The notes below the pieces were generated by a model. It had not been told where the DNA came from. It did not search any database and saw nothing but the letters and a program-made list of their open reading frames with translations. From Sphingomicrobium sp. (GTDB lineage Bacteria; Pseudomonadota; Alphaproteobacteria; Sphingomonadales; Sphingomonadaceae): a DNA stretch of 64,000 nt. Both the position numbers and the translations under genes were made by a program. The stretch is from assembly GCA_035281125.1 (NCBI GenBank), contig DATEEM010000085.1:39671-103670 (forward strand), given 5' to 3'. Shown piece after piece: positions 6,911 through 22,999 of this stretch; positions within the stretch are counted from its first letter, which is position 1, and every line of letters starts with the position of its first letter.

Positions 6911-7978
6911 ATGGACGATCCCGAAAAGTTACTCGAGGAAATCGGCAAGGCGGCTGACCTTCCAGCGCTCGACGCGTTGCGCGTCAAGCTGCTCGGCAAG
7001 TCGGGCGAGCTCACCGCGAAGCTGAAGTCGCTGGGCGCGATGGATTCGGCAACGCGCGCGGCGCAGGCGCCGAAGGTTCACGCGCTTCGCGAAGCGGTCA
7101 CGAATGCCATTGCAGACCGCAAGGCGGCACTCGAGAACGTCGAACTGGAGCGCAAGCTCGCGACCGAGACGCTCGATTTATCTCTGCCCGCGCCGGCGAG
7201 CCCGAGCGGCACGGTCCACCCGGTCAGCCAGGTGATGGACGAGCTGGCAGAGATTTTCGCCGACCTCGGATTCGCCGTCGCCGAGGGGCCGGAGATCGAA
7301 ACCCAATGGTACAATTTCACTGCGCTCAACATGCCGGAGTTTCACCCCGCCCGGGCAATGCAGGACACCTTCTACCTCGAGCCGCAAGCCCCCGATGAGG
7401 AGCCGTGCGTGCTGCGCACGCATACGTCGCCGGTCCAGATCCGGGCGATGGAGGAGCGGGGCGCGCCACTCTATGTGATCGCGCCCGGCCGCGTCTATCG
7501 CTCCGACAGCGACGCCACCCACACGCCGATGTTCCACCAGGTCGAGGGCTTGGTCATCGACCGCGCCATCACCCTCGGCCACCTCAAGTGGACGCTCGAG
7601 ACCTTTCTCAGGGCTTTTTTCGAACGCGACGACGTCGTGCTTCGCATGCGTCCGTCCTATTTCCCCTTCACCGAACCGTCAGCCGAGGTCGACGTCGGCT
7701 GGTCGATGGAAAAGGGCCGGCGCGTCGTCGGCGGTTGCGAAGGGTGGATGGAAGTCCTGGGCAGCGGCATGGTCCATCCGCGCGTGATCGCCAATTGCGG
7801 GCTCGATCCTGACGAGTGGCAAGGCTTCGCCTTCGGCTGCGGCATCGATCGCCTGGCGATGCTTAAATATGGCATGGACGACCTGCGGGCATTCTTCGAT
7901 GGCGATATCCGCTGGCTGAAGCATTACGGCTTTCGCGCGCTTGACGTGCCGACGCTGTCGGGCGGAGTCGGCGCATGA
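6911..7978 (+). CDS. pheS: Phenylalanine--tRNA ligase alpha subunit
   Basis: ATG 6911 in frame with track ORF; HPARAMQDTFY, LRTHTSPVQIR, FPFTEPSAE, GFAFGCGIDRL. Confidence 0.97.
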   Translation: MDDPEKLLEEIGKAADLPALDALRVKLLGKSGELTAKLKSLGAMDSATRAAQAPKVHALREAVTNAIADRKAALENVELERKLATETLDLSLPAPASPSGTVHPVSQVMDELAEIFADLGFAVAEGPEIETQWYNFTALNMPEFHPARAMQDTFYLEPQAPDEEPCVLRTHTSPVQIRAMEERGAPLYVIAPGRVYRSDSDATHTPMFHQVEGLVIDRAITLGHLKWTLETFLRAFFERDDVVLRMRPSYFPFTEPSAEVDVGWSMEKGRRVVGGCEGWMEVLGSGMVHPRVIANCGLDPDEWQGFAFGCGIDRLAMLKYGMDDLRAFFDGDIRWLKHYGFRALDVPTLSGGVGA

Positions 7979-13211: not shown

Positions 13212-14129
13212 ATGATCCTCACCTGCCCCAATTGCGCAACGCAATATGTGGTCAAGGATGGGGCAATTCCGCCGCAAGGCCGCCAGGTTCGCTGCGCGGC
13301 CTGCAAGCACAGTTGGCACCAGGACCCGGAATCGGCAGCCGAGCCGGAGCCGGCGGGCAACGACGCATCCGTGACCGCCGCCGGAGAGCCCGACGAGACG
13401 TTCGCAGAGGCGGCGATGATCGAGCCGAGCACAGGTCCCGAAGCCGAGGAGCGGGCCTTCGAGGGAGCCGTAGTCGCCGAGGCCGGGTCGGAGGCGAGTG
13501 CCGAAGCCGAGCCGGAGATGACTGCCGAAGCCGAGCCGGAGACGACCGCAGACGCCGATGCGGAGCCCGGCGCGGACCGCGGCCAGTTCGACATCCTCCC
13601 GCATCCGGGCGAGCGGGCCCCGGACTTCGCGGCGCCGCCCGTGCCGGAAGCCCAGCCCGACGACGACTTCAGCCCGTTCGCCGAGCGGGACTATGTCGAG
13701 ACGCGGCGGCGGCGCCCGCTGCGGGCAATTCTCGTCGTGCTGCTACTCGTCGCCGTCCTCGCGGTCGCATTCTGGTTCTTTGCCCCGCCGCAATGGAAGG
13801 CCCGGCTCGGCCTTGCCGGCACGGCTGCGACGCCGCTTCAGCTATCGAACCCGCCGCACATGGAGCTGCGGCCGCTGGCCAGCGGAAACCAGTTGCTGAC
13901 CGTGGCGGGACGGATCATCAACCCGACCGGGGACACCCAGCCGGTCCCGCCGATCTACGCGCAGCTTCGCGATCGCGGCGGCAAGGTCGTCTACAGCTGG
14001 ACGATCCCGCCGCCGGCGCCGACCATCGGGCCCGGGGAGAGCAAAGCGTTCAACAGCGCCGAGGTCAACGTTCCCACCGGCGCCGAAAACCTCATGCTGG
14101 AGATCAGCATCGGCTCGCCGAGAGCCTGA
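13212..14129 (+). CDS. zitP: MJ0042-type zinc-ribbon membrane protein, probable ZitP ortholog
   Basis: MILTCPNC...VRCAACKHSW zinc finger, acidic linker, one TM, C-terminal DUF3426-like domain; divergent from ftsE. Confidence 0.7.
   Translation: MILTCPNCATQYVVKDGAIPPQGRQVRCAACKHSWHQDPESAAEPEPAGNDASVTAAGEPDETFAEAAMIEPSTGPEAEERAFEGAVVAEAGSEASAEAEPEMTAEAEPETTADADAEPGADRGQFDILPHPGERAPDFAAPPVPEAQPDDDFSPFAERDYVETRRRRPLRAILVVLLLVAVLAVAFWFFAPPQWKARLGLAGTAATPLQLSNPPHMELRPLASGNQLLTVAGRIINPTGDTQPVPPIYAQLRDRGGKVVYSWTIPPPAPTIGPGESKAFNSAEVNVPTGAENLMLEISIGSPRA
13500..13547 (+). repeat. 24-bp in-frame tandem duplication (AEAEPEMT/AEAEPETT) in the zinc-ribbon protein linker
   Basis: gccgaagccgagccggagatgact followed by gccgaagccgagccggagacgacc; degenerate third copy to about 13568. 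Confidence 0.85.
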
Positions 14130-14351
14130 TCATTCGAATTCGATCAGGCGCGCCCGCCTCGTTTCCCCACCCGTCTGGATCACGGAATCCCGCGTGATGT
14201 AGCCATCGCGGCTTTCCGCGCTGCCGAGGCGCAAGACCGCGCCGGAGATGACCCGGACCGTCGCGCGCGCCTGGACGCGCGACGCGACCGGCTCGCGCGC
14301 CGGTTCCGGAGGGGCCGACACGGCGGCAGCGACGGCAAGAAGAAGCAGCAT
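14130..14351 (-). CDS. Small (73 aa) secreted hypothetical protein
   Basis: MLLLLAVAAAVSA signal-like N-terminus; fills the gap between zitP and tRNA-Leu; stop abuts the zitP stop; no clear SD sequence. Confidence 0.65.
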   Translation of the reverse strand: MLLLLAVAAAVSAPPEPAREPVASRVQARATVRVISGAVLRLGSAESRDGYITRDSVIQTGGETRRARLIEFE

Positions 14352-14383
14352 GCCGCGGACGTAACGCGAGCGGCAGCAAGTGG

Positions 14384-14398
14384 TAAACAATGTCTTAA
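14384..14398 (-). promoter_or_regulatory. CtrA-like site upstream of the 73-aa gene
   Basis: Gene strand TTAA-GACATTG-TTTA followed by CCA; 33 bp from the ATG. Confidence 0.55.
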
Positions 14399-14442
14399 GA
14401 TTCGTCCCGCTATGGCACGCGAGTCCGGGCGTTTGGCCTCCA

Positions 14443-14471
14443 TTGCGCCGCAATGGGCGCTTTGCTAGAGG
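14443..14471 (+). promoter_or_regulatory. Probable sigma70 promoter of tRNA-Leu
   Basis: TTGCGC-N17-TAGAGG with GC preceding the -10. Confidence 0.4.
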
Positions 14472-14518
14472 CCGCGCCTTGCCAGTGCCGGTGCCCGTGC
14501 CGGCCCAATTCATGACGT

Positions 14519-14605
14519 GCGGTCGTGGCGGAACTGGTAGACGCGCAGCGTTGAGGTCGCTGTGGCCGAAAGGCCGTGGAAGTTCGAGTCTTCTCGACCG
14601 CACCA
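14519..14605 (+). tRNA. tRNA-Leu (anticodon GAG)
   Basis: GCGGTCG acceptor stem, TGGTAGA D-loop, TTGAGGT anticodon loop, long variable arm, GTTCGAGT T-loop, encoded CCA. Confidence 0.97.
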
Positions 14606-14659
14606 TCTCAGATTTGACTTCGGCTAAGGCTGTGCCAACTTCGGTGCGCGGAGGGGCCG

Positions 14660-15229
14660 TTGATCGAAATCGAGGCGGATATCGTGCTCGGTGAGGCGTT
14701 CCGCCCGGCCGCCATCGCGCACAGCCACGTCTACAGGGGCGGCGTCCGGCGGATTCTCCTGCCGGCGCTCGCGCTCGCCGGGGCAATCATCTTGTCGTCC
14801 ATGGTCGGCATGCTCCTGCCGCTGCTCAGCCTGCGCCTCGAAGGCCTCGCCAGCCTGTTGTGGATCGGCGGCGGCATCCTCGGGCTGATGCTGGCGCTGA
14901 GGATCCTGTCCAGCGAGCACATGCGCGGCTTTCTCGACGGCTTGCGGCGGATCGGTTCGCCCGACGTCTTCCCGACCCGGTTCCGCTTCGACGAGCAGGG
15001 AATGTCGATCGCCAGCAGCCGGATCAGCTACTTGGTCCCATGGGCCTCGATCTTGTTCATCGTGCCATCCCCGGAACATTGGCTCGTCCAGGTCGACACG
15101 ATGACTCTGGTGATCCCTTATCGGGCATTCCCGGACCCGCAATCGGAGCGCGCGTTCCTTGACCTGGTCGGTGCGCGGCTGCTCCCGGACGCGAAGCGCC
15201 GTTCCGTCCTCGACAGAAAGGCCGCCTAG
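14660..15229 (+). CDS. YcxB-family membrane protein
   Basis: Two TM helices, then the YcxB-like FDEQG...VPWASI...VIPYRAF domain; TTG start with GGAGGGG RBS. Confidence 0.7.
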   Translation: MIEIEADIVLGEAFRPAAIAHSHVYRGGVRRILLPALALAGAIILSSMVGMLLPLLSLRLEGLASLLWIGGGILGLMLALRILSSEHMRGFLDGLRRIGSPDVFPTRFRFDEQGMSIASSRISYLVPWASILFIVPSPEHWLVQVDTMTLVIPYRAFPDPQSERAFLDLVGARLLPDAKRRSVLDRKAA

Positions 15230-17922
15230 GGCATCGTTAGCGGCAGGTCGCCCGATGCGATCGCGTGGGCGGTCGAGACATGGACTGCGCCGAGCCTGAC
15301 GACCGGTCGCTCCGGTGTGACTGTCGCGTTGAGGTTGAGCTCTGGCAGAATGCGCGCGGCCGCCGCCGAATCCCGTGCGATTCGCAACGAATAGCTGCCG
15401 TAGGGCACCCGTTCGAACAGGAAGAAGCCGTCGAAGTCGGTGCGCACAGTCGCGACCAGCTTGCCGGCCCCGTCGACGAGCTCGACGTCGAGGCCCTCGA
15501 ACCCGATTCCGCCGCTCTTGACGAGGGCGCCTTCGATGTCGCCGCCACCGACCAGCCCGATTTCGACCTCGGCCGGCACGCCGGGCCGCGGAACCACGAC
15601 CTGCAAGGCCTTTTTCGGGACGAGCATCGGGTCGCCGAGGCTAGTCGCATCGATCCCGACGGTCAGCGGCGTGTAGGCCGTGAGACCGCCGATCGTGACC
15701 GACCCCTTGGAATCCGTCGCGCGCTCGGCCTGCTTGGTTCCGGTGGTGATCAGCGCGCCCCTTTCGAGCGGCTCCGAGGGGTCGTGGAAGCCGTTGTCGT
15801 TGAGATCGCGATAGACGAGCGCGCGAATCATGCCGGCTTCCGCGAGGGGGCGTCGCGACAGGGTCATGCCGCGCCTTGGATCGAGCGAGAAATTGAGGTT
15901 CACGCCGAATGCGACGGAGCCGTCGGTCGCGGCTTCGCCAGTCAAGGCAATCGCCATCGAATCCAGGCGGCGGATATGGCTGATCCGGAAGCGGCCGCGA
16001 TGACCGGCCCCGTCATAGGCGACCGCGCCTTCCCAGTCGGCATTTTCCGATGCCGACCAATAAGCCGACAGCTCGGCGTCGCGGAAACGCGCGCGCGGCG
16101 CGACGTCGAAGCTGGCCAGGCCGCGCAGGCGCACGTCGCCGACGTGGCCGCTGCCGATCATCGCGACATTGACCTCGCCCGGCGGCGCCGGCCCCGAGCT
16201 CAGCAATTGCTTGCGATAGGCGACGTCGGTGGCGAGATTGAAGCGGCCGAGGTTTGCCGACAGTCTCGCAGCCGCCTCGAGCTGCTTCGACCCGTCCCCG
16301 CGGTCGGTGAAATGGACCTCCGCGTGCGCCGGAACGACCTTTCGCCCGATTTTCAGTGGCGCGTCGACCGTGGCGCGAAACTCGCGGAGGCTTTCGGCGC
16401 GGCCTCCCTGCAAATGAAAATCGCTTGCAATAATCGCTTCGGCGCCGACGTTCACGCGCCCGAACTTGCCGACCATCTGCGCCCTCGCCGCCATCCCGCC
16501 GGTCGAATCGCGCGCGGCCGACACTTCAACCAGCGCGCCGCCGATCGACCGCCGTACCGAGCCCTCGACAAACGTCACACGCTCGTCGTCGATCAGCATC
16601 ACGCGAGCCAGCGCGCCAACCGACGTGCGGGTATCGATGCCATGCTCGATGGAGACCGCCGCCTGGGCCTTCGGCTGCCCAAAGCGGTCGGGCGGTTTTT
16701 GCAGCGTGAGCACATCGCGGCCGGGCTGGTTGAAGCCGGCCCAGTACCAGGTCTTGCCCGCCGGCACGTTGTCCTGCCCGACGTTGATCACTTCCTCGCG
16801 CGAGCGGATTTGTCCCTGGGGGCCGTAAAGGACGATGCTGACGCGGTTTTCGCCGTAGAAAAGTTGCACGTCGTCAAATACATAGCGGCTACTCGCATTG
16901 GCCTTGGCGAAGCCGAGCAGCTCGCCGTTGCGATAGATTTCCGCTTCCCAGCCGCTTGGAAGGTCACCTTCGAAGCGAGTCCGGTCAAACGACGCCTGGG
17001 TAGTCAGCGGCCGATTGGTCACGACTGCCCCGCGGCCGCTGGCCGCCGACCCGCTGAGCCGGCTGTCGAAACCCTCAACGTCGCCGAAGCCGAAGTGGGT
17101 GGCCTTGAGCGGTCCGAGCAGCTGCGCTTCGGGATCCGAACGGTAGGCGCGGAAGCGAAGCATGCTCGGCATGCCCTTCTCGGTCGTCGTCAATTGCGCA
17201 TCGTAGGACAGCTTGGCGATCTCCCCGGCCGCATAAACCGAGCTTTGCCGATCGATTCGAACGCCTTGCCCGGACCGGTACGTGACTCCGGCGCTGACGA
17301 CGAAGTCGAGGGCCGGCGCGCGCCACATGCGGTACGGGAGCTTCACCTGGGGGAGCGTGGCCAGATCGTAGCGCGCGGTGCGGATGTGCTGCGACCTTTG
17401 CTGCCGCTCCATAGCCATTTCGACCGGGAGCTTCGCCTCGGATTCGAGGACCAGGACCGAGCCGGACGTCACGGGCTTGACCCCTATGCCGAACCAGCGG
17501 GCAAGGGCGGTCGTCTCGACGCACCAGCCCTCTGGTGTCTCCCGGATCGTGCCCGGAGCGAGAGTCTCGTTCTTGGCGCCGTAGCTCGCCGAGTTGGCAG
17601 CGTAATCGATTGAAATCCGGTTCTTTTCCTTGAACGCCCAACCGCCGGCCTTGCGCGCCGTCAGGTCGACCTTCACGGGTACGTCAAGCGCAGTCAGAAA
17701 GTCGCCTAAGACGACACAAGTCCCTTCGGGGGTGGTGTAGGCGCGGACGCCATCGCCGAGCCTCAGCTGCCGAATGTGGACGTCCAGCAGGAACTGCGCG
17801 TCCGGATCGGGGCTCCAGCCCTTTGCGGCCGCAGGCGGCGGAGGCGCGGATGCGGCGACGCTGCCGGCGCAAAGCGCCAGCAGCATCCCCGCCCTGCGCA
17901 GCCAATGACGGCCGGCGCGCAT
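15226..17922 (-). CDS. Outer-membrane usher-like protein of a chaperone-usher fimbrial system (898 aa)
   Basis: Signal peptide; PapC-N-like domain; usher plug-like motif (GWEAEIYRNGELL...DVQLFYGENRVSIVLYGPQG); amphipathic beta-strand barrel region; two C-terminal Ig-like (SdrD-B/carboxypeptidase-regulatory-like) domains. Confidence 0.8.
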   Translation of the reverse strand: MRAGRHWLRRAGMLLALCAGSVAASAPPPPAAAKGWSPDPDAQFLLDVHIRQLRLGDGVRAYTTPEGTCVVLGDFLTALDVPVKVDLTARKAGGWAFKEKNRISIDYAANSASYGAKNETLAPGTIRETPEGWCVETTALARWFGIGVKPVTSGSVLVLESEAKLPVEMAMERQQRSQHIRTARYDLATLPQVKLPYRMWRAPALDFVVSAGVTYRSGQGVRIDRQSSVYAAGEIAKLSYDAQLTTTEKGMPSMLRFRAYRSDPEAQLLGPLKATHFGFGDVEGFDSRLSGSAASGRGAVVTNRPLTTQASFDRTRFEGDLPSGWEAEIYRNGELLGFAKANASSRYVFDDVQLFYGENRVSIVLYGPQGQIRSREEVINVGQDNVPAGKTWYWAGFNQPGRDVLTLQKPPDRFGQPKAQAAVSIEHGIDTRTSVGALARVMLIDDERVTFVEGSVRRSIGGALVEVSAARDSTGGMAARAQMVGKFGRVNVGAEAIIASDFHLQGGRAESLREFRATVDAPLKIGRKVVPAHAEVHFTDRGDGSKQLEAAARLSANLGRFNLATDVAYRKQLLSSGPAPPGEVNVAMIGSGHVGDVRLRGLASFDVAPRARFRDAELSAYWSASENADWEGAVAYDGAGHRGRFRISHIRRLDSMAIALTGEAATDGSVAFGVNLNFSLDPRRGMTLSRRPLAEAGMIRALVYRDLNDNGFHDPSEPLERGALITTGTKQAERATDSKGSVTIGGLTAYTPLTVGIDATSLGDPMLVPKKALQVVVPRPGVPAEVEIGLVGGGDIEGALVKSGGIGFEGLDVELVDGAGKLVATVRTDFDGFFLFERVPYGSYSLRIARDSAAAARILPELNLNATVTPERPVVRLGAVHVSTAHAIASGDLPLTMP

Positions 17923-17956
17923 CGAGTCTGCGCTCCCCGCGCTTCCCGCGCCCCTC

Positions 17957-18790
17957 CTAGTAGAGAACCGCCTTGGTTTCGGCGATGACGTGGCTGCCGT
18001 CGTCGAAGGTCTCGACATATTGGACGGTCACGGGCCCGCGCAGCTCCTCCTTGAAGCTCTCCTCCACCGGGACCGCGACGTGGCGCGTGCTGACCTCCTT
18101 GTAGACCGCGACGGCCTTCTGGACGGCGATCGGGTTGCGAACGCCCGGCTTCAGCACGCGCACCTCGCCAAAGGTAGAGCGATCGCCGGAGCGCGAGATA
18201 TCCAGCCCGACGTAGGACTTCCCGTTCTTCTGCTCGAGCTGAACATTGGCAATCCCGGCGGTCGCCTGGAGGTTCCCGAGCCGAACGATGACCGGGATGG
18301 TGACGCCGTAGACCGGCGTTAGCTGGAAATGGAGGCCCTTGGGCGCGTCGCCCGCCGCGGCGGGCTGAACGACGGGGTTGGCCGGGGGAATGGCGCGGAA
18401 CAACAGGTGCACGCGATATTCGCCGTCGGGCATGCCTTGGGGCGGGCGCGCGGCAATGCGGATCGCCTGCGGCTGGTGCGGCGCCAGCACGACCTTGCGC
18501 GGCGCGTAGACGATCATGTCGGCCGCCTTCTGGTCTTCCGTGGTGGGCTCGTTGACGTCGATGAGCCCGCCCTCGCTCGTCATGCGGCGGAATTCGATCG
18601 ACACCCGGTAGGTCGCCGGCTCCTCGCCGATATTGTTGAGGATGACCTCGGCGCCCCTGCGGCCATCGAGCACGATGCGCGTCGGCGCGACGAGCAGGTC
18701 GCCGATGCCCGCCTCGGCAGGCGTGGCGGCGAGAAGCAATGGCGCAGTGCACAGGCATGCGCGGAAGGCGGACTGGGTCCAGCGGTTCAT
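17957..18790 (-). CDS. Periplasmic fimbrial chaperone (PapD-N-like)
   Basis: Signal peptide; LLVAPTRIVL...VILNN...APRKVVLAPHQPQAIRI...GEYRVHLLFRAIP...VTIPVIVR; GAGGGG RBS. Confidence 0.82.
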   Translation of the reverse strand: MNRWTQSAFRACLCTAPLLLAATPAEAGIGDLLVAPTRIVLDGRRGAEVILNNIGEEPATYRVSIEFRRMTSEGGLIDVNEPTTEDQKAADMIVYAPRKVVLAPHQPQAIRIAARPPQGMPDGEYRVHLLFRAIPPANPVVQPAAAGDAPKGLHFQLTPVYGVTIPVIVRLGNLQATAGIANVQLEQKNGKSYVGLDISRSGDRSTFGEVRVLKPGVRNPIAVQKAVAVYKEVSTRHVAVPVEESFKEELRGPVTVQYVETFDDGSHVIAETKAVLY

Positions 18791-18848
18791 GACGGCGATC
18801 CCCTCACTTGCTCCACACTGGAGCGATCGCCGTCCTCTTTCGTCGGGA

Positions 18849-18871
18849 ATGGTTGATTTTCGGTCAACCAT
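18849..18871. promoter_or_regulatory. Palindromic CtrA-like site upstream of the chaperone-usher genes
   Basis: ATGG-TTGA-N7-TCAA-CCAT, perfect 8-bp inverted repeat with a 7-nt spacer. Confidence 0.6.
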
Positions 18872-18920
18872 GGCTGGTGTTTCGGCAGAAAGGCGAGAAA
18901 AGCGGGCGTTTCCGCCGCGA

Positions 18921-19439
18921 TCAATAGTCCACGGTCACGTTGAACGTGCCGACATAGACTCCTCCCGCGGTGCTCGAACTCAGCGTGATCGAGCCTCCGA
19001 GGGAAAAATTCACTCCCGGATTGCCGGAGTTGGGGATGAAAACCGTTCCGGGGTTGTCGACGACCAGCGTCAGTGTCTTGCTCGGGTCGTTCTGGTTGAC
19101 CAGGGTCACGTTCGGGGCGGAGATCCGCGCCGTCTGGTTGTTGGAACCGGCCACGTTGTAGGTCGCGACCTGGGTCGTCCCGGAGCAGGTGACATTGCTG
19201 TTCGCGCAGCTGAACAGGCCGGTCCGGGTAATGCCAACGGTCGCGTTCGACCAGGTCCCCGGGCCGAGGACGATCGTCCCGAGGTCGAGGTTCTGCACCC
19301 ACTTGAGCGTCAGCGGCTTCACGACCTTGGCCGACACGGCGGCGCTCTTGTTGGCCGCATGCGCGGGCGCCGCGGCAAGGGCGGCCGCGAGGACGATCGA
19401 AATTGCGGCAAGGCCCGATCGGGCTCGCTGGCGCACCAC
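18921..19439 (-). CDS. DUF4402-type fimbrial subunit (paralog 2)
   Basis: Signal peptide, AAVSAKVVKPLTL, Cys pair, C-terminal GVYVGTFNVTVDY; GTG start with GGGAG RBS. Confidence 0.85.
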   Translation of the reverse strand: MVRQRARSGLAAISIVLAAALAAAPAHAANKSAAVSAKVVKPLTLKWVQNLDLGTIVLGPGTWSNATVGITRTGLFSCANSNVTCSGTTQVATYNVAGSNNQTARISAPNVTLVNQNDPSKTLTLVVDNPGTVFIPNSGNPGVNFSLGGSITLSSSTAGGVYVGTFNVTVDY

Positions 19440-19485
19440 TTGCTCTCCCGGCCGGGGACTTCTCGAGCGTCGGCTTACCTCCGAA

Positions 19486-19508
19486 ATGGTTTATTTTGTC
19501 TCAACCAT
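19486..19508. promoter_or_regulatory. CtrA-like site upstream of subunit 2
   Basis: ATGG-TTTA-TTTTGTC-TCAA-CCAT, near copy of the 18849 site. Confidence 0.6.
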
Positions 19509-19527
19509 GATCGGGCACTCCGCGCGC

Positions 19528-19556
19528 AAAAAGGGGCCGCCATCGCTGGCGACCCC
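19528..19556 (-). terminator. Intrinsic terminator after subunit 1
   Basis: Minus strand GGGGTCGCCA-GCGA-TGGCGGCCCC-TTTTT. Confidence 0.8.
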
Positions 19557-19585
19557 CCAACCGCTTCGTTCCGGTACGAACGAAC

Positions 19586-20104
19586 TTAGTAATTCACGGT
19601 GACGTTGAACGTTCCGACGTAGGTGCCATCGGCGGTCGTCGAAGCGACGGAGATCTGGCCGCCGAGATCGAAGGTCAGCCCGACAGCGCCGGAATTGCCG
19701 AGGTTGACTGTGCCCGGGCTGTCGACCGTCATGAGCAAAGTCGAAACGCCATCGTTCTGATTGGTCAGGGTCACGTTCGGCGCGTTGATGGTTACGACCT
19801 GATTGTTGGTCCCGGTGATGCGGTACTGGGCCGTCTGGGTAGCGCCCGAGCAGGTCGTGTTGGCGTTGGCACAGCTGAACACGCCGGCCCGGCTGATCCC
19901 GACGTTCGCGCCCGACCAGGCGCCCGCGCCGGACAGGACGATCGTCCCGAGGTCGAGGTCACGGACCCAGGTCAGGGTCAGCGGCTTTACGATCCGCGCT
20001 GTGGCCGTGGCATTCTGGTTGGGACCGACCGCAAACGCGGGCGTTGCGCTCAGCGCCCATGCCGCAACCGCCGCCAGCGACATCATGCGAAGGACATTGC
20101 TCAT
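19586..20104 (-). CDS. DUF4402-type fimbrial subunit (paralog 1, probable major subunit)
   Basis: Signal peptide ending PAFA, ATATARIVKPLTL, Cys pair, C-terminal GTYVGTFNVTVNY; followed by its own terminator. Confidence 0.85.
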   Translation of the reverse strand: MSNVLRMMSLAAVAAWALSATPAFAVGPNQNATATARIVKPLTLTWVRDLDLGTIVLSGAGAWSGANVGISRAGVFSCANANTTCSGATQTAQYRITGTNNQVVTINAPNVTLTNQNDGVSTLLMTVDSPGTVNLGNSGAVGLTFDLGGQISVASTTADGTYVGTFNVTVNY

Positions 20105-20206
20105 CGTTTATTTCCCCACTTGGATTGGAAATCACTGCCGGCTGGCCAGATGGTCACCCGCGGGTTTACCAATTAACCTTAATCGCTTTCGGCTTTGCTC
20201 AGGGGC

Positions 20207-20225
20207 ATGGTTAACGGCCGGTTAG
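20207..20225 (-). promoter_or_regulatory. CtrA-like site upstream of subunit 1
   Basis: Gene strand CTAA-CCGGCCG-TTAACCAT; extra TTAA half-sites at 20173-20182. Confidence 0.6.
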
Positions 20226-20248
20226 GCCTTCGGCCGGCCTGGCCGAGG

Positions 20249-20767
20249 TCACAGATATTCAGCCGTGATCGGCAGATCGCCGCGATATTCGCCGTCCGCA
20301 TCGCCGCTGACGCGGAGCCGTCCGCCGAAGCGAAAGGTGAGATTGCCCGCGGAATCGAGACGCGGCATGGACGGGAGGTCGCTGGCGACGTCGTCGAAGA
20401 CCACCTGGCCGCCGCTCAGCGAGTGGAGCACGATACTGTTCGGCAGCACGACCCGGATCGCTCGCCCCGGCTCGCCGCGGACGACCACGGTGCCAACCAT
20501 GGCCCGCGGGCTGATCTCCGCGATCGCCCCGCTGATCGCGCGCGATCCGTCGGGCCGAATCATGGCGGTGCCATCGCCCAAACCGGACAGGATGAGTCGG
20601 TCGAAGCTCAGGCCGGTTTCGATTTCGAGGCGGACGTCGTTCTTGCCGGAATTGTCGTCGCGGCTGGTCGTGGGCGTCGCGCAAAGGCGGCACTGGGCGG
20701 TCGCCGAGACCGACGAAGCCAGGCCGACACCCGCCATCAGCATCACAAGCGCGCTTTTGAGGCTCAT
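20249..20767 (-). CDS. Divergent DUF4402-type subunit (possible tip/minor subunit)
   Basis: Signal peptide, CRLC N-terminus, LSFDRLIL, FRFGGRL, C-terminal GEYRGDLPITAEYL. Confidence 0.75.
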   Translation of the reverse strand: MSLKSALVMLMAGVGLASSVSATAQCRLCATPTTSRDDNSGKNDVRLEIETGLSFDRLILSGLGDGTAMIRPDGSRAISGAIAEISPRAMVGTVVVRGEPGRAIRVVLPNSIVLHSLSGGQVVFDDVASDLPSMPRLDSAGNLTFRFGGRLRVSGDADGEYRGDLPITAEYL

Positions 20768-20792
20768 GACCGGCGGCTCTACGCGCGAGAGG

Positions 20793-20819
20793 CTAAAACA
20801 GGGTTAATCTGGCGCTAAC
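20793..20819. promoter_or_regulatory. Tandem CtrA-like sites upstream of subunit 3
   Basis: CTAA-N7-TTAA-N7-CTAAC, three half-sites at exact 11-bp spacing. Confidence 0.6.
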
Positions 20820-20893
20820 GTATTCTTCGCCAGACCGCGCCCGGCTCAGCCCTATTGTCGCAATCGTCCCGACTTTCTATCGCTCACTCCTGA

Positions 20894-22999
20894 ATGGCCC
20901 GTTCGCCCTCCTCCGCTCCTTCGGGGCGCTCGACATTCCGGACGATCGCCAAATGGGTCGTCTACGCCGGGCTTGCCGGCCTGCTCCTGCTCGGCATCTT
21001 CGTCGGCGTCGCCTACAGCCAGCTTCCGGAATATTCGGAGCTCGAGAAACGGTCCGATCTCGGGCAAATGGTCCGCGTCCGCGCCGCCAACGGTCAGGTC
21101 CTGGTGTCCCTCGGCCCGAGCTTCGGCCGCTGGCTCACCTACGACGAGATCCCGAAGGAAATGCGGGCGGCGATGATCGCCGTGGAGGATAAGCGCTTCC
21201 GCAGCCACGTCGGCGTCGATCCGATTGGAATCGCCAGGTCGTTCAAGGTCCGGATCGAATCCGGCCACTGGCGCCAGGGGGGCTCGACCATCACCCAGCA
21301 GCTCGCGCGCAACATCTTCCTGACCAACACACGAACGTTCGGCCGCAAGCTCAAGGAGATGATCCTGGCGCTCGCGCTCGAGCGGAAGTTCACCAAGGAG
21401 CAGATCCTCGAGCTTTATCTGAACCGCGTCTATTTCGGGGGTGGCGCCTATGGGATCGACGCCGCCTCTCAGAAATTCTTCGGCCACAGCGCCGATCATC
21501 TGAGCCTCGGCGAGGCGGCGATCATTGCGGGGCTGGTGAAAGCCCCGTCCAACTATTCGCCGACCGCGGATGTCGAGGCGGCGCGCGAGCGCTCTGCGAT
21601 CGTGCTCAAGACCATGGCCGACAACGGGTTCATCGACCCGGCCGCCGCGGCCGCAGTCGATCCCGCGCAAATTCGAATCCAGCCGACGACCCGCCAGAAC
21701 AGCGTCCGCTATTTCACCGACTGGGCGCTGCCCCAGCTCGATACGTTGATCGACGAGACCCAGGACCCGATCGAAGTCTGGACCACGCTCGACCCGGCGA
21801 TGCAGGCCGCGGCCGACCGCGCGATCCAGGCGAACGTTCCCGCCGGGGCACAGGGAGCACTGGTGTCGATCGACCGCGACGGAGCGGTCCGGGCGATGAT
21901 CGGCGGCCGCGACTATGTCGATTCGATCTACAATCGCGCGACGCAGGCCACCCGCCAACCCGGCTCTGCCTTCAAGCTGTTCGTCTATTTGACCGCGCTG
22001 GAATCGGGAATGAAGCCGACGGACACGATCGTCGACGAGCCGATCACGATCGGCGGCTGGAGCCCGCGCAATTCGACTCGCACCAACCTCGGACCCGTTA
22101 CGTTGCGCGAAGCCTTTTCGCGCTCGATCAACACGATCAGCGCCAAGATCGGCGCGCAGCTCGGCTTCGGCAGCATCGCCGACATGGCGCGGCGCTTCGG
22201 GATCAGCACCCCCATCTCGACCTATCCGTCGATGGTGCTGGGAACGAGCGACGTCCGCCTCATCGACATGACCCGCGCCTTCGCCTCGGTCGCAAACAAG
22301 GGCGTCGCCATCACGCCCTATGCGATCCGCAAGGTGGTGAACGCTGACGGCCGCCTCCTTTACCAGCACGAGCGATCGGAAGAGCGGGTGCTGGTCGCGC
22401 CGTGGGTCGCGGCCGAGATGACCGACCTGCTGCAATCCGCCGTGCTGACCGGTACTGGACGCGCAGCCCAAATCGGCCGCCCGGTGGCCGGCAAGACGGG
22501 GACGACCAGCTCGAACAAGGACGGCTGGTTCGTCGGATTTTCCAGCGGGCTGACGACCGGCGTCTGGATGGGCCGGGACGATGCCCGCGCGGTGCCTGGC
22601 TTGCAGGGGGGCACGGCGCCGGCGCGTGCGTTCCACGATTTCATGACGGTTGCGGTGGCTCGGCGTCCCGTCGAAACCTTCGATACTCAAGTGCCGATGC
22701 CGGACTGGCAATTGACTCCGGAAGAGGAATTCTTAGGCGACGAGGCATTCGACGCCAATGCCCTTCAACCCCTGGTCGACGAAAACGGCAATCCGCTTCC
22801 CCAACCATTGCCGGCCCAGCCCGGCGCTCCGCCGCCGATGATCCGGCCGGACGGGACCGGCGAACCGTCCCAACAGGAGCTCGACCAGGCATTTCCTCCG
22901 GCACCGGCGCAGCGCCCGTCGCCGCGCCAGCCGCCGCCACGGCAACCCGAGCGTCTACGTCCGCCCGAAGCGGCGCAGCCGCGGCCCGGCACGGCGTAG
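20894..22999 (+). CDS. Class A penicillin-binding protein (PBP1A family)
   Basis: EDKRF, GGSTITQQLARN, YLNRVYFG glycosyltransferase motifs; SAFK, SINT and KTG transpeptidase motifs; Pro-rich tail. Confidence 0.95.
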   Translation: MARSPSSAPSGRSTFRTIAKWVVYAGLAGLLLLGIFVGVAYSQLPEYSELEKRSDLGQMVRVRAANGQVLVSLGPSFGRWLTYDEIPKEMRAAMIAVEDKRFRSHVGVDPIGIARSFKVRIESGHWRQGGSTITQQLARNIFLTNTRTFGRKLKEMILALALERKFTKEQILELYLNRVYFGGGAYGIDAASQKFFGHSADHLSLGEAAIIAGLVKAPSNYSPTADVEAARERSAIVLKTMADNGFIDPAAAAAVDPAQIRIQPTTRQNSVRYFTDWALPQLDTLIDETQDPIEVWTTLDPAMQAAADRAIQANVPAGAQGALVSIDRDGAVRAMIGGRDYVDSIYNRATQATRQPGSAFKLFVYLTALESGMKPTDTIVDEPITIGGWSPRNSTRTNLGPVTLREAFSRSINTISAKIGAQLGFGSIADMARRFGISTPISTYPSMVLGTSDVRLIDMTRAFASVANKGVAITPYAIRKVVNADGRLLYQHERSEERVLVAPWVAAEMTDLLQSAVLTGTGRAAQIGRPVAGKTGTTSSNKDGWFVGFSSGLTTGVWMGRDDARAVPGLQGGTAPARAFHDFMTVAVARRPVETFDTQVPMPDWQLTPEEEFLGDEAFDANALQPLVDENGNPLPQPLPAQPGAPPPMIRPDGTGEPSQQELDQAFPPAPAQRPSPRQPPPRQPERLRPPEAAQPRPGTA

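Follow-up and report, generated by a model that had tools for sequence, protein, structure and literature searches.

In a 64-kb window (the whole stretch of DNA analysed; contig C85:39671-103670) of a Sphingomicrobium genome, a predicted chaperone-usher fibre locus is punctuated by five short elements in which half-sites stand 7 nt apart, and which we interpret as probable operators of the developmental regulator CtrA. The genome (2.16 Mb, 66.7% GC, 94% complete) comes from a rhizosphere metagenome, and its source is a small soil sphingomonad devoid of a flagellum, since a whole-genome search of the 94%-complete assembly found no flhA. The genes of the locus and one RNA feature between them, all on the minus strand, are listed here in window coordinates (ORF, open reading frame).

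20249-20767, minus strand: DUF4402 subunit gene 3, first of the locus; 172 aa, signal peptide, CxxC near the mature N-terminus (PF14352, E 1.4e-19)
19586-20104, minus strand: DUF4402 subunit gene 2; 172 aa, donor-strand-like N-terminal extension ATATARIVKPLTLTW (PF14352, E 2.6e-17)
19528-19558, minus strand: terminator-like hairpin with U-run after subunit gene 2, GGGGUCGCCAGCGAUGGCGGCCCCUUUUU, from the fold of the intergenic RNA
18921-19439, minus strand: DUF4402 subunit gene 1; 172 aa (PF14352, E 1.7e-15)
17957-18790, minus strand: PapD-like periplasmic chaperone gene; 277 aa (PapD_N, E 8e-4)
15226-17922, minus strand: usher gene; 898 aa from M33 of a long ORF
14130-14351, minus strand: conserved ORF with a hydrophobic N-terminus; 73 aa, sixth in gene order in relatives

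The elements, each labelled by the gene that it precedes, are the following, together with a second conserved block near one of them.

20793-20818, minus strand: subunit-3 site (D3up), TTAG-N7-TTAA-N7-TTAG; three half-sites in 11-bp phase, core GTTAG-N6-TTAACCCTGTTTTAG
20207-20229, minus strand: subunit-2 site (D2up), CTAACCGGCCGTTAACCAT at 20207-20225; CTAA-N7-TTAACCAT, centre 114 nt upstream of the subunit-2 ATG
20163-20183, no strand assigned: second conserved block in the subunit-2 leader or promoter, GGTTTACCAATTAACCTTAA in plus-strand reading; two TTWACC-type half-sites at non-canonical spacing
19486-19508, minus strand: subunit-1 site (D1up), ATGGTTGAGACAAAATAAACCAT; 23-bp near-palindrome ATGGTTGA-GACAAAA-TAAACCAT, centre 58 nt upstream of the subunit-1 GTG
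18849-18871, minus strand: chaperone site (chapup), ATGGTTGACCGAAAATCAACCAT; perfect 23-bp palindrome ATGGTTGA-CCGAAAA-TCAACCAT, centre 70 nt upstream of the chaperone ATG at 18790
14380-14402, minus strand: site of the 73-aa ORF (down), TTAAGACATTGTTTACCA at 14381-14398; AATCTTAA-GACATTG-TTTACCAC, that is TTAA-N7-TTTACCA

A divergent chaperone-usher locus with five N7 elements

The first-pass annotation of this DNA had placed five CtrA-like motifs on the gene strand, each with a spacer of exactly 7 nt, and all five were recovered at their coordinates. They have the make-up of CtrA boxes, being N7-spaced with one or two mismatches to TTAA-N7-TTAA, and four of the five carry (T)NAACCAT or TTTACCA. 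When the window was scanned for TTAA-N7-TTAA with at most one mismatch, four matches were obtained, all within the locus, against 0.81 expected (3 of 100 shuffled sequences reached four), and TNAACCAT occurred eight times against 1.62 expected, five of them in the locus, a number that none of 100 shuffles reached. The 23-bp palindrome ATGGTTNA-N7-TNAACCAT has two copies in the entire 2.16-Mb genome, both of them here. The elements lie 40-115 nt upstream of start codons and overlap -35-like hexamers (TTGACC, TTAACC, TTTACC) in their right or left half-sites, and where TTAACC or TTTACC is read as a -35 element, a -10-like hexamer follows 17 nt downstream.

That each motif precedes a separate gene, as originally proposed, holds in the form of one site for each of five predicted transcription units; no site precedes the usher gene, which begins 34 nt past the chaperone stop codon, so it is presumably co-transcribed with the chaperone gene. 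The gaps between the subunit genes and on to the chaperone gene measure 144, 146 and 130 nt. The whole 146-nt intergenic RNA between subunit genes 2 and 1 folds with a z-score of -4.4, and none of 200 shuffles folded equally well; RNA folding also gave a weaker hairpin after subunit gene 1. A strict terminator scan listed none of the intergenic hairpins. The longest ORF of the chaperone gene is headed by an ATG at 18871, inside the chapup palindrome, but the signal peptide follows M28 (the ATG at 18790), which is for that reason probably the true start; automatic annotation could thus hide the operator (18791-18871) within a mis-called coding sequence.

The description of the locus as being of the chaperone-usher type stood at the level of the usher fold; the three subunits, all secreted DUF4402 proteins, belong to no classified fimbrial family. 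Searches of PDB sequences with the usher, the chaperone and a subunit returned nothing useful, and no sequence relative of the chaperone was found among the chaperones there; its PapD_N match, at 19.8 bits, lies below the curated cut-off of 23 bits. The usher matched neither the Pfam Usher nor an NCBIfam usher model, Pfam showing only a C-terminal CarboxypepD_reg domain. However, the AlphaFold model of the usher, built on a 30-sequence alignment (predicted local distance difference test, pLDDT, 73.7), returned FimD or PapC as all of its top 18 Foldseek matches in the PDB (best E 1.7e-25, probability 1.00), with fold alignments of about 900 columns at 11-12% identity. For the DUF4402 subunit model (pLDDT 83), the top ten PDB fold matches were all chaperone-usher pilins (CfaB, Caf1, CsuA/B), although these are weak (E 4e-3 to 3e-2 for the ten and up to 0.1 among the top matches at large, template-modelling score 0.32-0.38), and the subunit alignment displays an alternating N-terminal segment, A.A.A.IVKPLTL. 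On the strength of the usher and subunit fold matches, we regard the locus as a very divergent chaperone-usher system.

The remaining site had likewise been assigned to a gene of the fimbrial locus. It does precede the 73-aa ORF, but in this genome that ORF is parted from the usher gene by a tRNA-Leu(GAG) gene (14519-14605, plus strand) and a YcxB-like gene (14660-15229, plus strand), which together occupy 14519-15229. As ycxB is common to only one other of 80 related loci, a recent insertion is likely. The 73-aa ORF matched no Pfam or NCBIfam family, yet it gave tblastn matches at 43-51% identity in at least 52 loci, on the same strand and 2960-3260 nt after the usher start, and it stands directly after the usher gene in at least 52 relatives. 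Downstream of its site lie a conserved GCGTTA (14361-14366), 12 nt away, and a -10-like hexamer TTACGT (14359-14364), 17 nt past TTTACC and ending 7 nt before the ATG; with TTTACC read as the -35 element, this arrangement suggests that the mRNA of the 73-aa ORF is leaderless.

Conservation of the elements and the CtrA motif of the genome

A back-translated usher search returned 80 loci of about 14 kb each, nearly all from Sphingomicrobium or Sphingomonas metagenome-assembled genomes and four from isolates (Sphingomonas hankyongi SE220, S. alba SE158, S. agri LMG 29563 and Sphingomonas sp. URHD0057), and each position of these loci was scored against ATGGTTAA-N7-TTAACCAT. Gene order was identical throughout. 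The matches concentrated at -2900, -2300, -1600, -1000 and +2900 from the usher start, five positions outside which the background was 0.1 match per kb. Loss of the motif from orthologous loci, which had been named beforehand as evidence that would speak against the idea, was not seen: all five positions are conserved, and each class of site keeps its own sequence flavour, position and orientation across the 80 loci, as listed below.

D3up: consensus GGTTAG-N7-TTAACCCTGTTTTAG, in 52 of 66 loci
D2up: consensus CCTAA-N7-TTAACCAT, right half TTAACCAT or TTAACCAA, in about 68 of 68 loci
D1up: consensus ATGGTTGA-N7-TCAACCAT, right half TCAACCAT or TAAACCAT, in 66 of 73 loci
chapup: consensus ATGGTTGA-CCGAAAA-TAAACCAT, in about 74 of 74 loci (76 sites were scored, and 74 loci offered the complete search range)
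down: consensus cTTAA-N7-TTTACCAT, followed by GCGTTA, in 62 of 62 loci

A 69-locus consensus shows a conserved 'ggttAat' block some 35 nt downstream of D2up. D3up, whose end lies 25 nt upstream of the subunit-3 ATG and 76 nt upstream of a divergent PBP1A gene, sits in a divergent intergenic region (20793-20894) opposite this class A penicillin-binding protein (PBP; transglycosylase/transpeptidase) gene; the PBP gene is syntenic in 66 loci, and D3up could hence serve both divergent genes.

Conservation reaches beyond the genus. The usher is present in 47 of the 112 family genera sampled (about 40%), and in a set of 20 far loci with usher identities of 33-48% (19 from genera that lack a CtrA-like paralogue described below, and one, G096, the second genome of the window's genus) most carry a site of the form GGTTAG/TTTA-N7-TNAACCMT upstream of the chaperone gene. 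At the expected position 13 of the 20 reached the score threshold, five more had weaker TTAACC-type matches, and several bear symmetric ATGG...CCAT flanks.

What ties these sites to CtrA is the remainder of the genome. Of its 12 OmpR-type winged-helix matches, one is CtrA at full length (NF045991 equivalog; 420 bits, cut-off 350; positions 1-224 of 224 covered), and the genome also encodes SciP (DUF1153, 136 bits) and a ChpT-type phosphotransferase (HPTransfase, 115 bits). For comparison of DNA contacts, the PDB offered the CtrA receiver domain only (4QPJ) and no DNA-contact structure. CtrA, SciP, ChpT and a protoglobin-type methyl-accepting chemotaxis protein (MCP) with a CtrA-like box are retained despite the missing FlhA, and the lack of flhA also deprives the genome of flagellar promoters as an internal CtrA reference. 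Genome-wide, about 30 TTAA-N7-TTAACCAT-like sites were found, some 27 of them intergenic. The word TTAACC is non-coding in 101 of 151 occurrences (67%) where 27.8 (18%) would be expected, an excess also over the control words TTAAGG and TTAAGC, which are non-coding in 41% (Fisher P = 6e-7), and TTAACCAT is non-coding in 15 of its 17 genomic occurrences (3.1 expected). Behind these sites stand ctrA itself, two HvyA-like BTLCP peptidase genes and the genes for an MCP, AmiC, MreB and ClpA, as well as for a DUF2807 adhesin-head protein, a cadherin-like adhesin and an orphan DUF4402 protein on contig C38. This C38 orphan gene (7386-7910, minus strand) has GGTAAA-N7-TTTACC and, 17 nt before its ATG, TTAACCAT; a second orphan DUF4402 gene (C57:3864-4388, plus strand) has GGTTAG-N7-ATAACCAG along with an oppositely oriented TTAACCCTGTTTA word. 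Neither has a chaperone or usher gene nearby, their neighbours being tldD and a lipase-like gene.

Across the Alphaproteobacteria, CtrA motifs take the forms TTAA-N7-TTAA and TTAACCAT, with activating sites near -35 (PMC9437464, PMC6180460). Upstream of sciP we found TTAACCAG and TTAACCAA boxes, and in the region upstream of ctrA compared over 29 genus genomes, the only strongly conserved blocks are TTAACCTTTT and ATGGTTAATG. The ctrA upstream region of the present genome (C41:3930-4150) contains TTAG-N6-TTAACCTT, ATGGTTAA-N7-TTCA and TTAA-N7-TTAC, the first with a spacing of 6 nt; the P1 and P2 promoters of Caulobacter ctrA likewise have an atypical 6-nt spacing (PMC6180460). The box upstream of one BTLCP gene is retained in 14 of 19 genus orthologues. 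CtrA directly activates the gene for the BTLCP protein HvyA in Caulobacter and, in Sinorhizobium fredii, binds the hvyA-like promoter (PMC4241560), so that the box at the BTLCP genes links the motif to an experimentally established and conserved CtrA target. The ctrA and BTLCP upstream comparisons anchor, at the level of sequence, the motif to CtrA. Taken together with the intergenic enrichment and with a bona fide CtrA, SciP and ChpT in the genome, they support the CtrA-type reading of the motif made in the first-pass annotation, and the conservation of the motif predicts, rather than proves, that CtrA controls the fibre.

Alternative readings of the elements

Several observations weigh against CtrA operators as the account of these sites. 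The two palindromes, the best-conserved sites of all, are non-canonical in both tetramers, with TTGA and with TCAA or TAAA in place of TTAA. Conservation also extends to their 7-nt spacer CCGAAAA (18857-18863 in chapup, where it is kept in 53 of 76 sites) and to their 3' flank TTCCGG. For CtrA boxes, whose spacers are normally free, this is unusual, and it makes an overlapping second signal likely, be it part of a promoter or the site of another protein. With TTGACC taken as the -35 element, the dyad would span -39 to -17, a placement that fits activation and repression alike. A sigma-70 consensus scan of 13900-21000 yielded no promoter, so the placement of promoters remains inferred, and a search of RNA runs found none that matches the window sequence, which the source rhizosphere metagenome alone does.

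To the same side belong three properties of a second CtrA-like protein, a receiver-less paralogue of 183 aa (C30:3655-4206, plus strand, downstream of ileS-lspA) that joins an N-terminal helical region to a CtrA-like winged helix. This DNA-binding domain (DBD) scored 97 bits against the CtrA model and at most 52 against any other OmpR-type family; its recognition helix is nearly identical to that of CtrA (KIIDVFISKLRKKL versus KIIDVFICKLRKKL); and the protein occurs in 115 of 121 genus genomes, including 59 of 59 high-quality ones. Such a protein might be the main occupant of the sites, the palindromes especially, and would then make regulation independent of phosphorylation. The TTGA flavour of the palindromes is, like the paralogue, typical of the genus, but with a paralogue that is genus-wide, co-occurrence is uninformative there, and the full-length protein was not found in the other 111 family genera sampled. 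Many of these paralogue-free genera nevertheless keep the usher locus with GGTTAG-N7-TNAACCAT before the chaperone gene, some with ATGG...CCAT flanks, and the same motif occurs at the ctrA, sciP and BTLCP promoters, classic CtrA targets. The paralogue is thus not needed to explain the sites, although it may still modulate them within the genus; we consider it unlikely as their main ligand, while it keeps relevant the original caveat that a similar OmpR-type regulator might act here.

The AACCAT-containing words could instead be recognised primarily by SciP or by some other factor. The Caulobacter SciP motif from chromatin immunoprecipitation sequencing, (G/A)TTAACCAT(A/G) (PMC4083442), must also be counted against CtrA; D2up fits this 10-mer with purine flanks (GTTAACCATG), a SciP homologue is encoded in the genome (DUF1153, 136 bits), and the spacer and flanks of the palindromes are conserved beyond what a CtrA box needs. 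The palindromes, however, read T-TMAACCAT-T and lack the purine flanks, and an invariant 7-nt dyad whose left halves (TTAG, CTAA, TTAA) do without CCAT fits CtrA better than an ungapped 10-mer. The SciP sites of Caulobacter, moreover, mostly overlap with those of CtrA, and binding by SciP would thus supplement control by CtrA and not replace it. We hold SciP as the primary reader of these words to be quite improbable. Harder still to sustain is the notion that the elements are no operators but core promoters, with TTGACC or TTAACC serving as the -35 hexamer of a housekeeping or alternative sigma factor and duplicated along with the genes. TTGACC agrees with the -35 consensus in five of six positions, the subunit genes are paralogous and their promoters could have been co-duplicated, and three classes of site share a conserved block (GCGTTA, CGTAAG or GCGTAG) 12-14 nt past the right half-site. 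Yet a -35 hexamer leaves unexplained the second half-site at exactly 7 nt, the ATGG...CCAT symmetry and the recurrence of the dyad at the ctrA, BTLCP and MCP genes, and no sigma-70-type promoter passed the consensus scan. CtrA boxes typically overlap -35 elements in any case, so that promoter and operator are not mutually exclusive; as a reading without operators, we give this one a very small chance.

Two further candidates were rejected. Intercistronic hairpins are frequent in fimbrial operons, and the 8-bp arms of the palindromes can pair, with pairing predicted in the intergenic RNA between subunit gene 1 and the chaperone gene, so that one might picture attenuators, processing sites or terminators, formed in RNA or single-stranded DNA, within a single operon. 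Self-complementary arms, however, occur in no more than 22 of 76 chapup sites and 27 of 66 D1up sites; the common right half TAAACCAT mismatches the invariant TTGA and is never compensated, which argues for a protein-binding site over a hairpin. Three of the five site classes are not palindromic, the region with the perfect palindrome has a fold z-score of only -1.9, and Rfam gave no match beyond the tRNA. With arms that are not kept complementary in orthologues and no Rfam family, we dismissed hairpins and terminators as the basis of the palindromes, a scenario that we hold to be extremely improbable. An FNR/FixK (FNR/CRP-type) box, TTGA-N6-TCAA, was discarded as well, the spacing here being 7 and not 6 nt and the right half of chapup reading TAAA in 42 of 76 sites.

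CtrA control of a surface fibre

Having weighed these alternatives, we think it probable that the five elements are CtrA operators, one per transcription unit, in the form of conserved, non-consensus variants specific to their position in the locus. Each operator would consist of two TTAA-like tetramers with 7 nt between them, the dyad being extended to TTAACCAT, and the five units served would be those of the three subunits (3, 2 and 1), of the chaperone together with the usher, and of the 73-aa ORF. Phosphorylated CtrA would bind these sites as a dimer and, judging from the overlap with -35 elements and by analogy with Caulobacter, would most likely activate. With what appears to be a hairpin after each subunit gene and a box of its own before each unit, the expression of every component could be set separately, and the conservation of distinct non-consensus variants (TTAG, CTAA, TTGA/TMAA, TTTA) suggests tuned affinities and hence levels or timing of expression set component by component. 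The CtrA phosphorelay of this lineage, which has no flagellum, would then govern not motility but surface fibres and adhesins. SciP may in addition be recruited by the CCAT flanks, and both SciP and the genus-specific receiver-less CtrA-DBD paralogue are possible co-binders.

A more far-reaching scheme combines these elements. The CtrA circuit would have been rewired from motility to the DUF4402 fibre; an affinity ladder of operator variants would fix the order or stoichiometry of tip, rod, chaperone/usher and the 73-aa component; and the paralogue, by competing with phosphorylated CtrA for the symmetric 23-bp sites or by taking its place there, would make expression of the fibre independent of the phosphorelay. 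As a whole we regard this scheme as speculative and rather unlikely.

The closest known counterparts are the developmental promoters of Caulobacter crescentus (pilA/cpa of the Tad pilus, the class II flagellar promoters and ctrA P1/P2), with which the locus shares the TTAA-N7-TTAA dyad and the TTAACCAT half-site, the presence of SciP and of a ChpT phosphorelay and, as predicted here, a position near or over -35 and the coupling of a surface appendage with ctrA autoregulation (PMC4083442, PMC6180460, PMC9437464). It differs from them in that the target here is a chaperone-usher-type fibre instead of a type IVc pilus or flagellum, in a host without flhA, and is predicted from sequence; two of the sites, moreover, take the form of 23-bp palindromes flanked by CCAT on either side, in which TTGA/TMAA stands for TTAA and the spacer is conserved. 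The promoter of the BTLCP gene hvyA is in Caulobacter activated by CtrA and repressed by MucR1/2 (PMC4241560), and the two BTLCP genes found here carry the motif of the fibre locus, a comparison that serves to name the motif and says nothing direct about the fimbrial promoters.

As for the fibre, akin to the archaic (sigma-clade) Csu pili of Acinetobacter baumannii, it would be assembled from small subunits with N-terminal donor strands by a PapD-like chaperone and an outer-membrane usher, and CsuA/B is among the best, albeit weak, fold matches of the DUF4402 subunit. In contrast to Csu, the subunits are DUF4402 and not SCPU proteins, the usher has no Pfam Usher match and the chaperone falls below the PapD_N cut-off; Csu is encoded in one operon with one promoter, whereas here each gene tends to have its own box, the usher gene apart. 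Expression of csu depends on the OmpR-family regulator BfmR, a precedent for OmpR-type control of such pili. The pap/fim-type operons, which have a single promoter and, behind the gene for the major subunit, an intercistronic terminator, resemble the locus in having hairpins after subunit genes and major subunits upstream of chaperone and usher. Stoichiometry there is set on one transcript, by attenuation and mRNA processing, whereas every unit here is predicted to be re-initiated from its own regulator-dependent promoter.

Control of pili by CtrA is known for the Tad/type IVc pilus. Consistent with the suggestion in the first-pass annotation that such control had not been described for this pilus class, the literature searched contained no mention of DUF4402 and no link of CtrA to chaperone-usher pili. 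Motif and regulator are already known; the predicted link of CtrA to a chaperone-usher system would be new, and the layout of one box per gene is unusual. No developmental regulator of the Alphaproteobacteria has been studied better than CtrA, whose ancestral role is believed to lie in the control of motility. The locus gives a concrete, testable instance of the part that CtrA plays once the flagellum has been lost. The prediction is that CtrA drives an uncharacterised fibre, present in 47 of the 112 family genera sampled, together with adhesins and BTLCP peptidases. In Sphingomonas melonis ctrA is dispensable. The CtrA pathway of this species controls biofilm formation and motility (Francez-Charlot et al. 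2015, as cited in PMC8116508), and a CtrA-dependent adhesive fibre would, if the prediction is true, be an obvious effector of biofilm formation. The layout of one box per gene, with its conserved non-consensus variants, may moreover provide a natural system in which to study how operator affinity sets the ratios of components in an assembly pathway.

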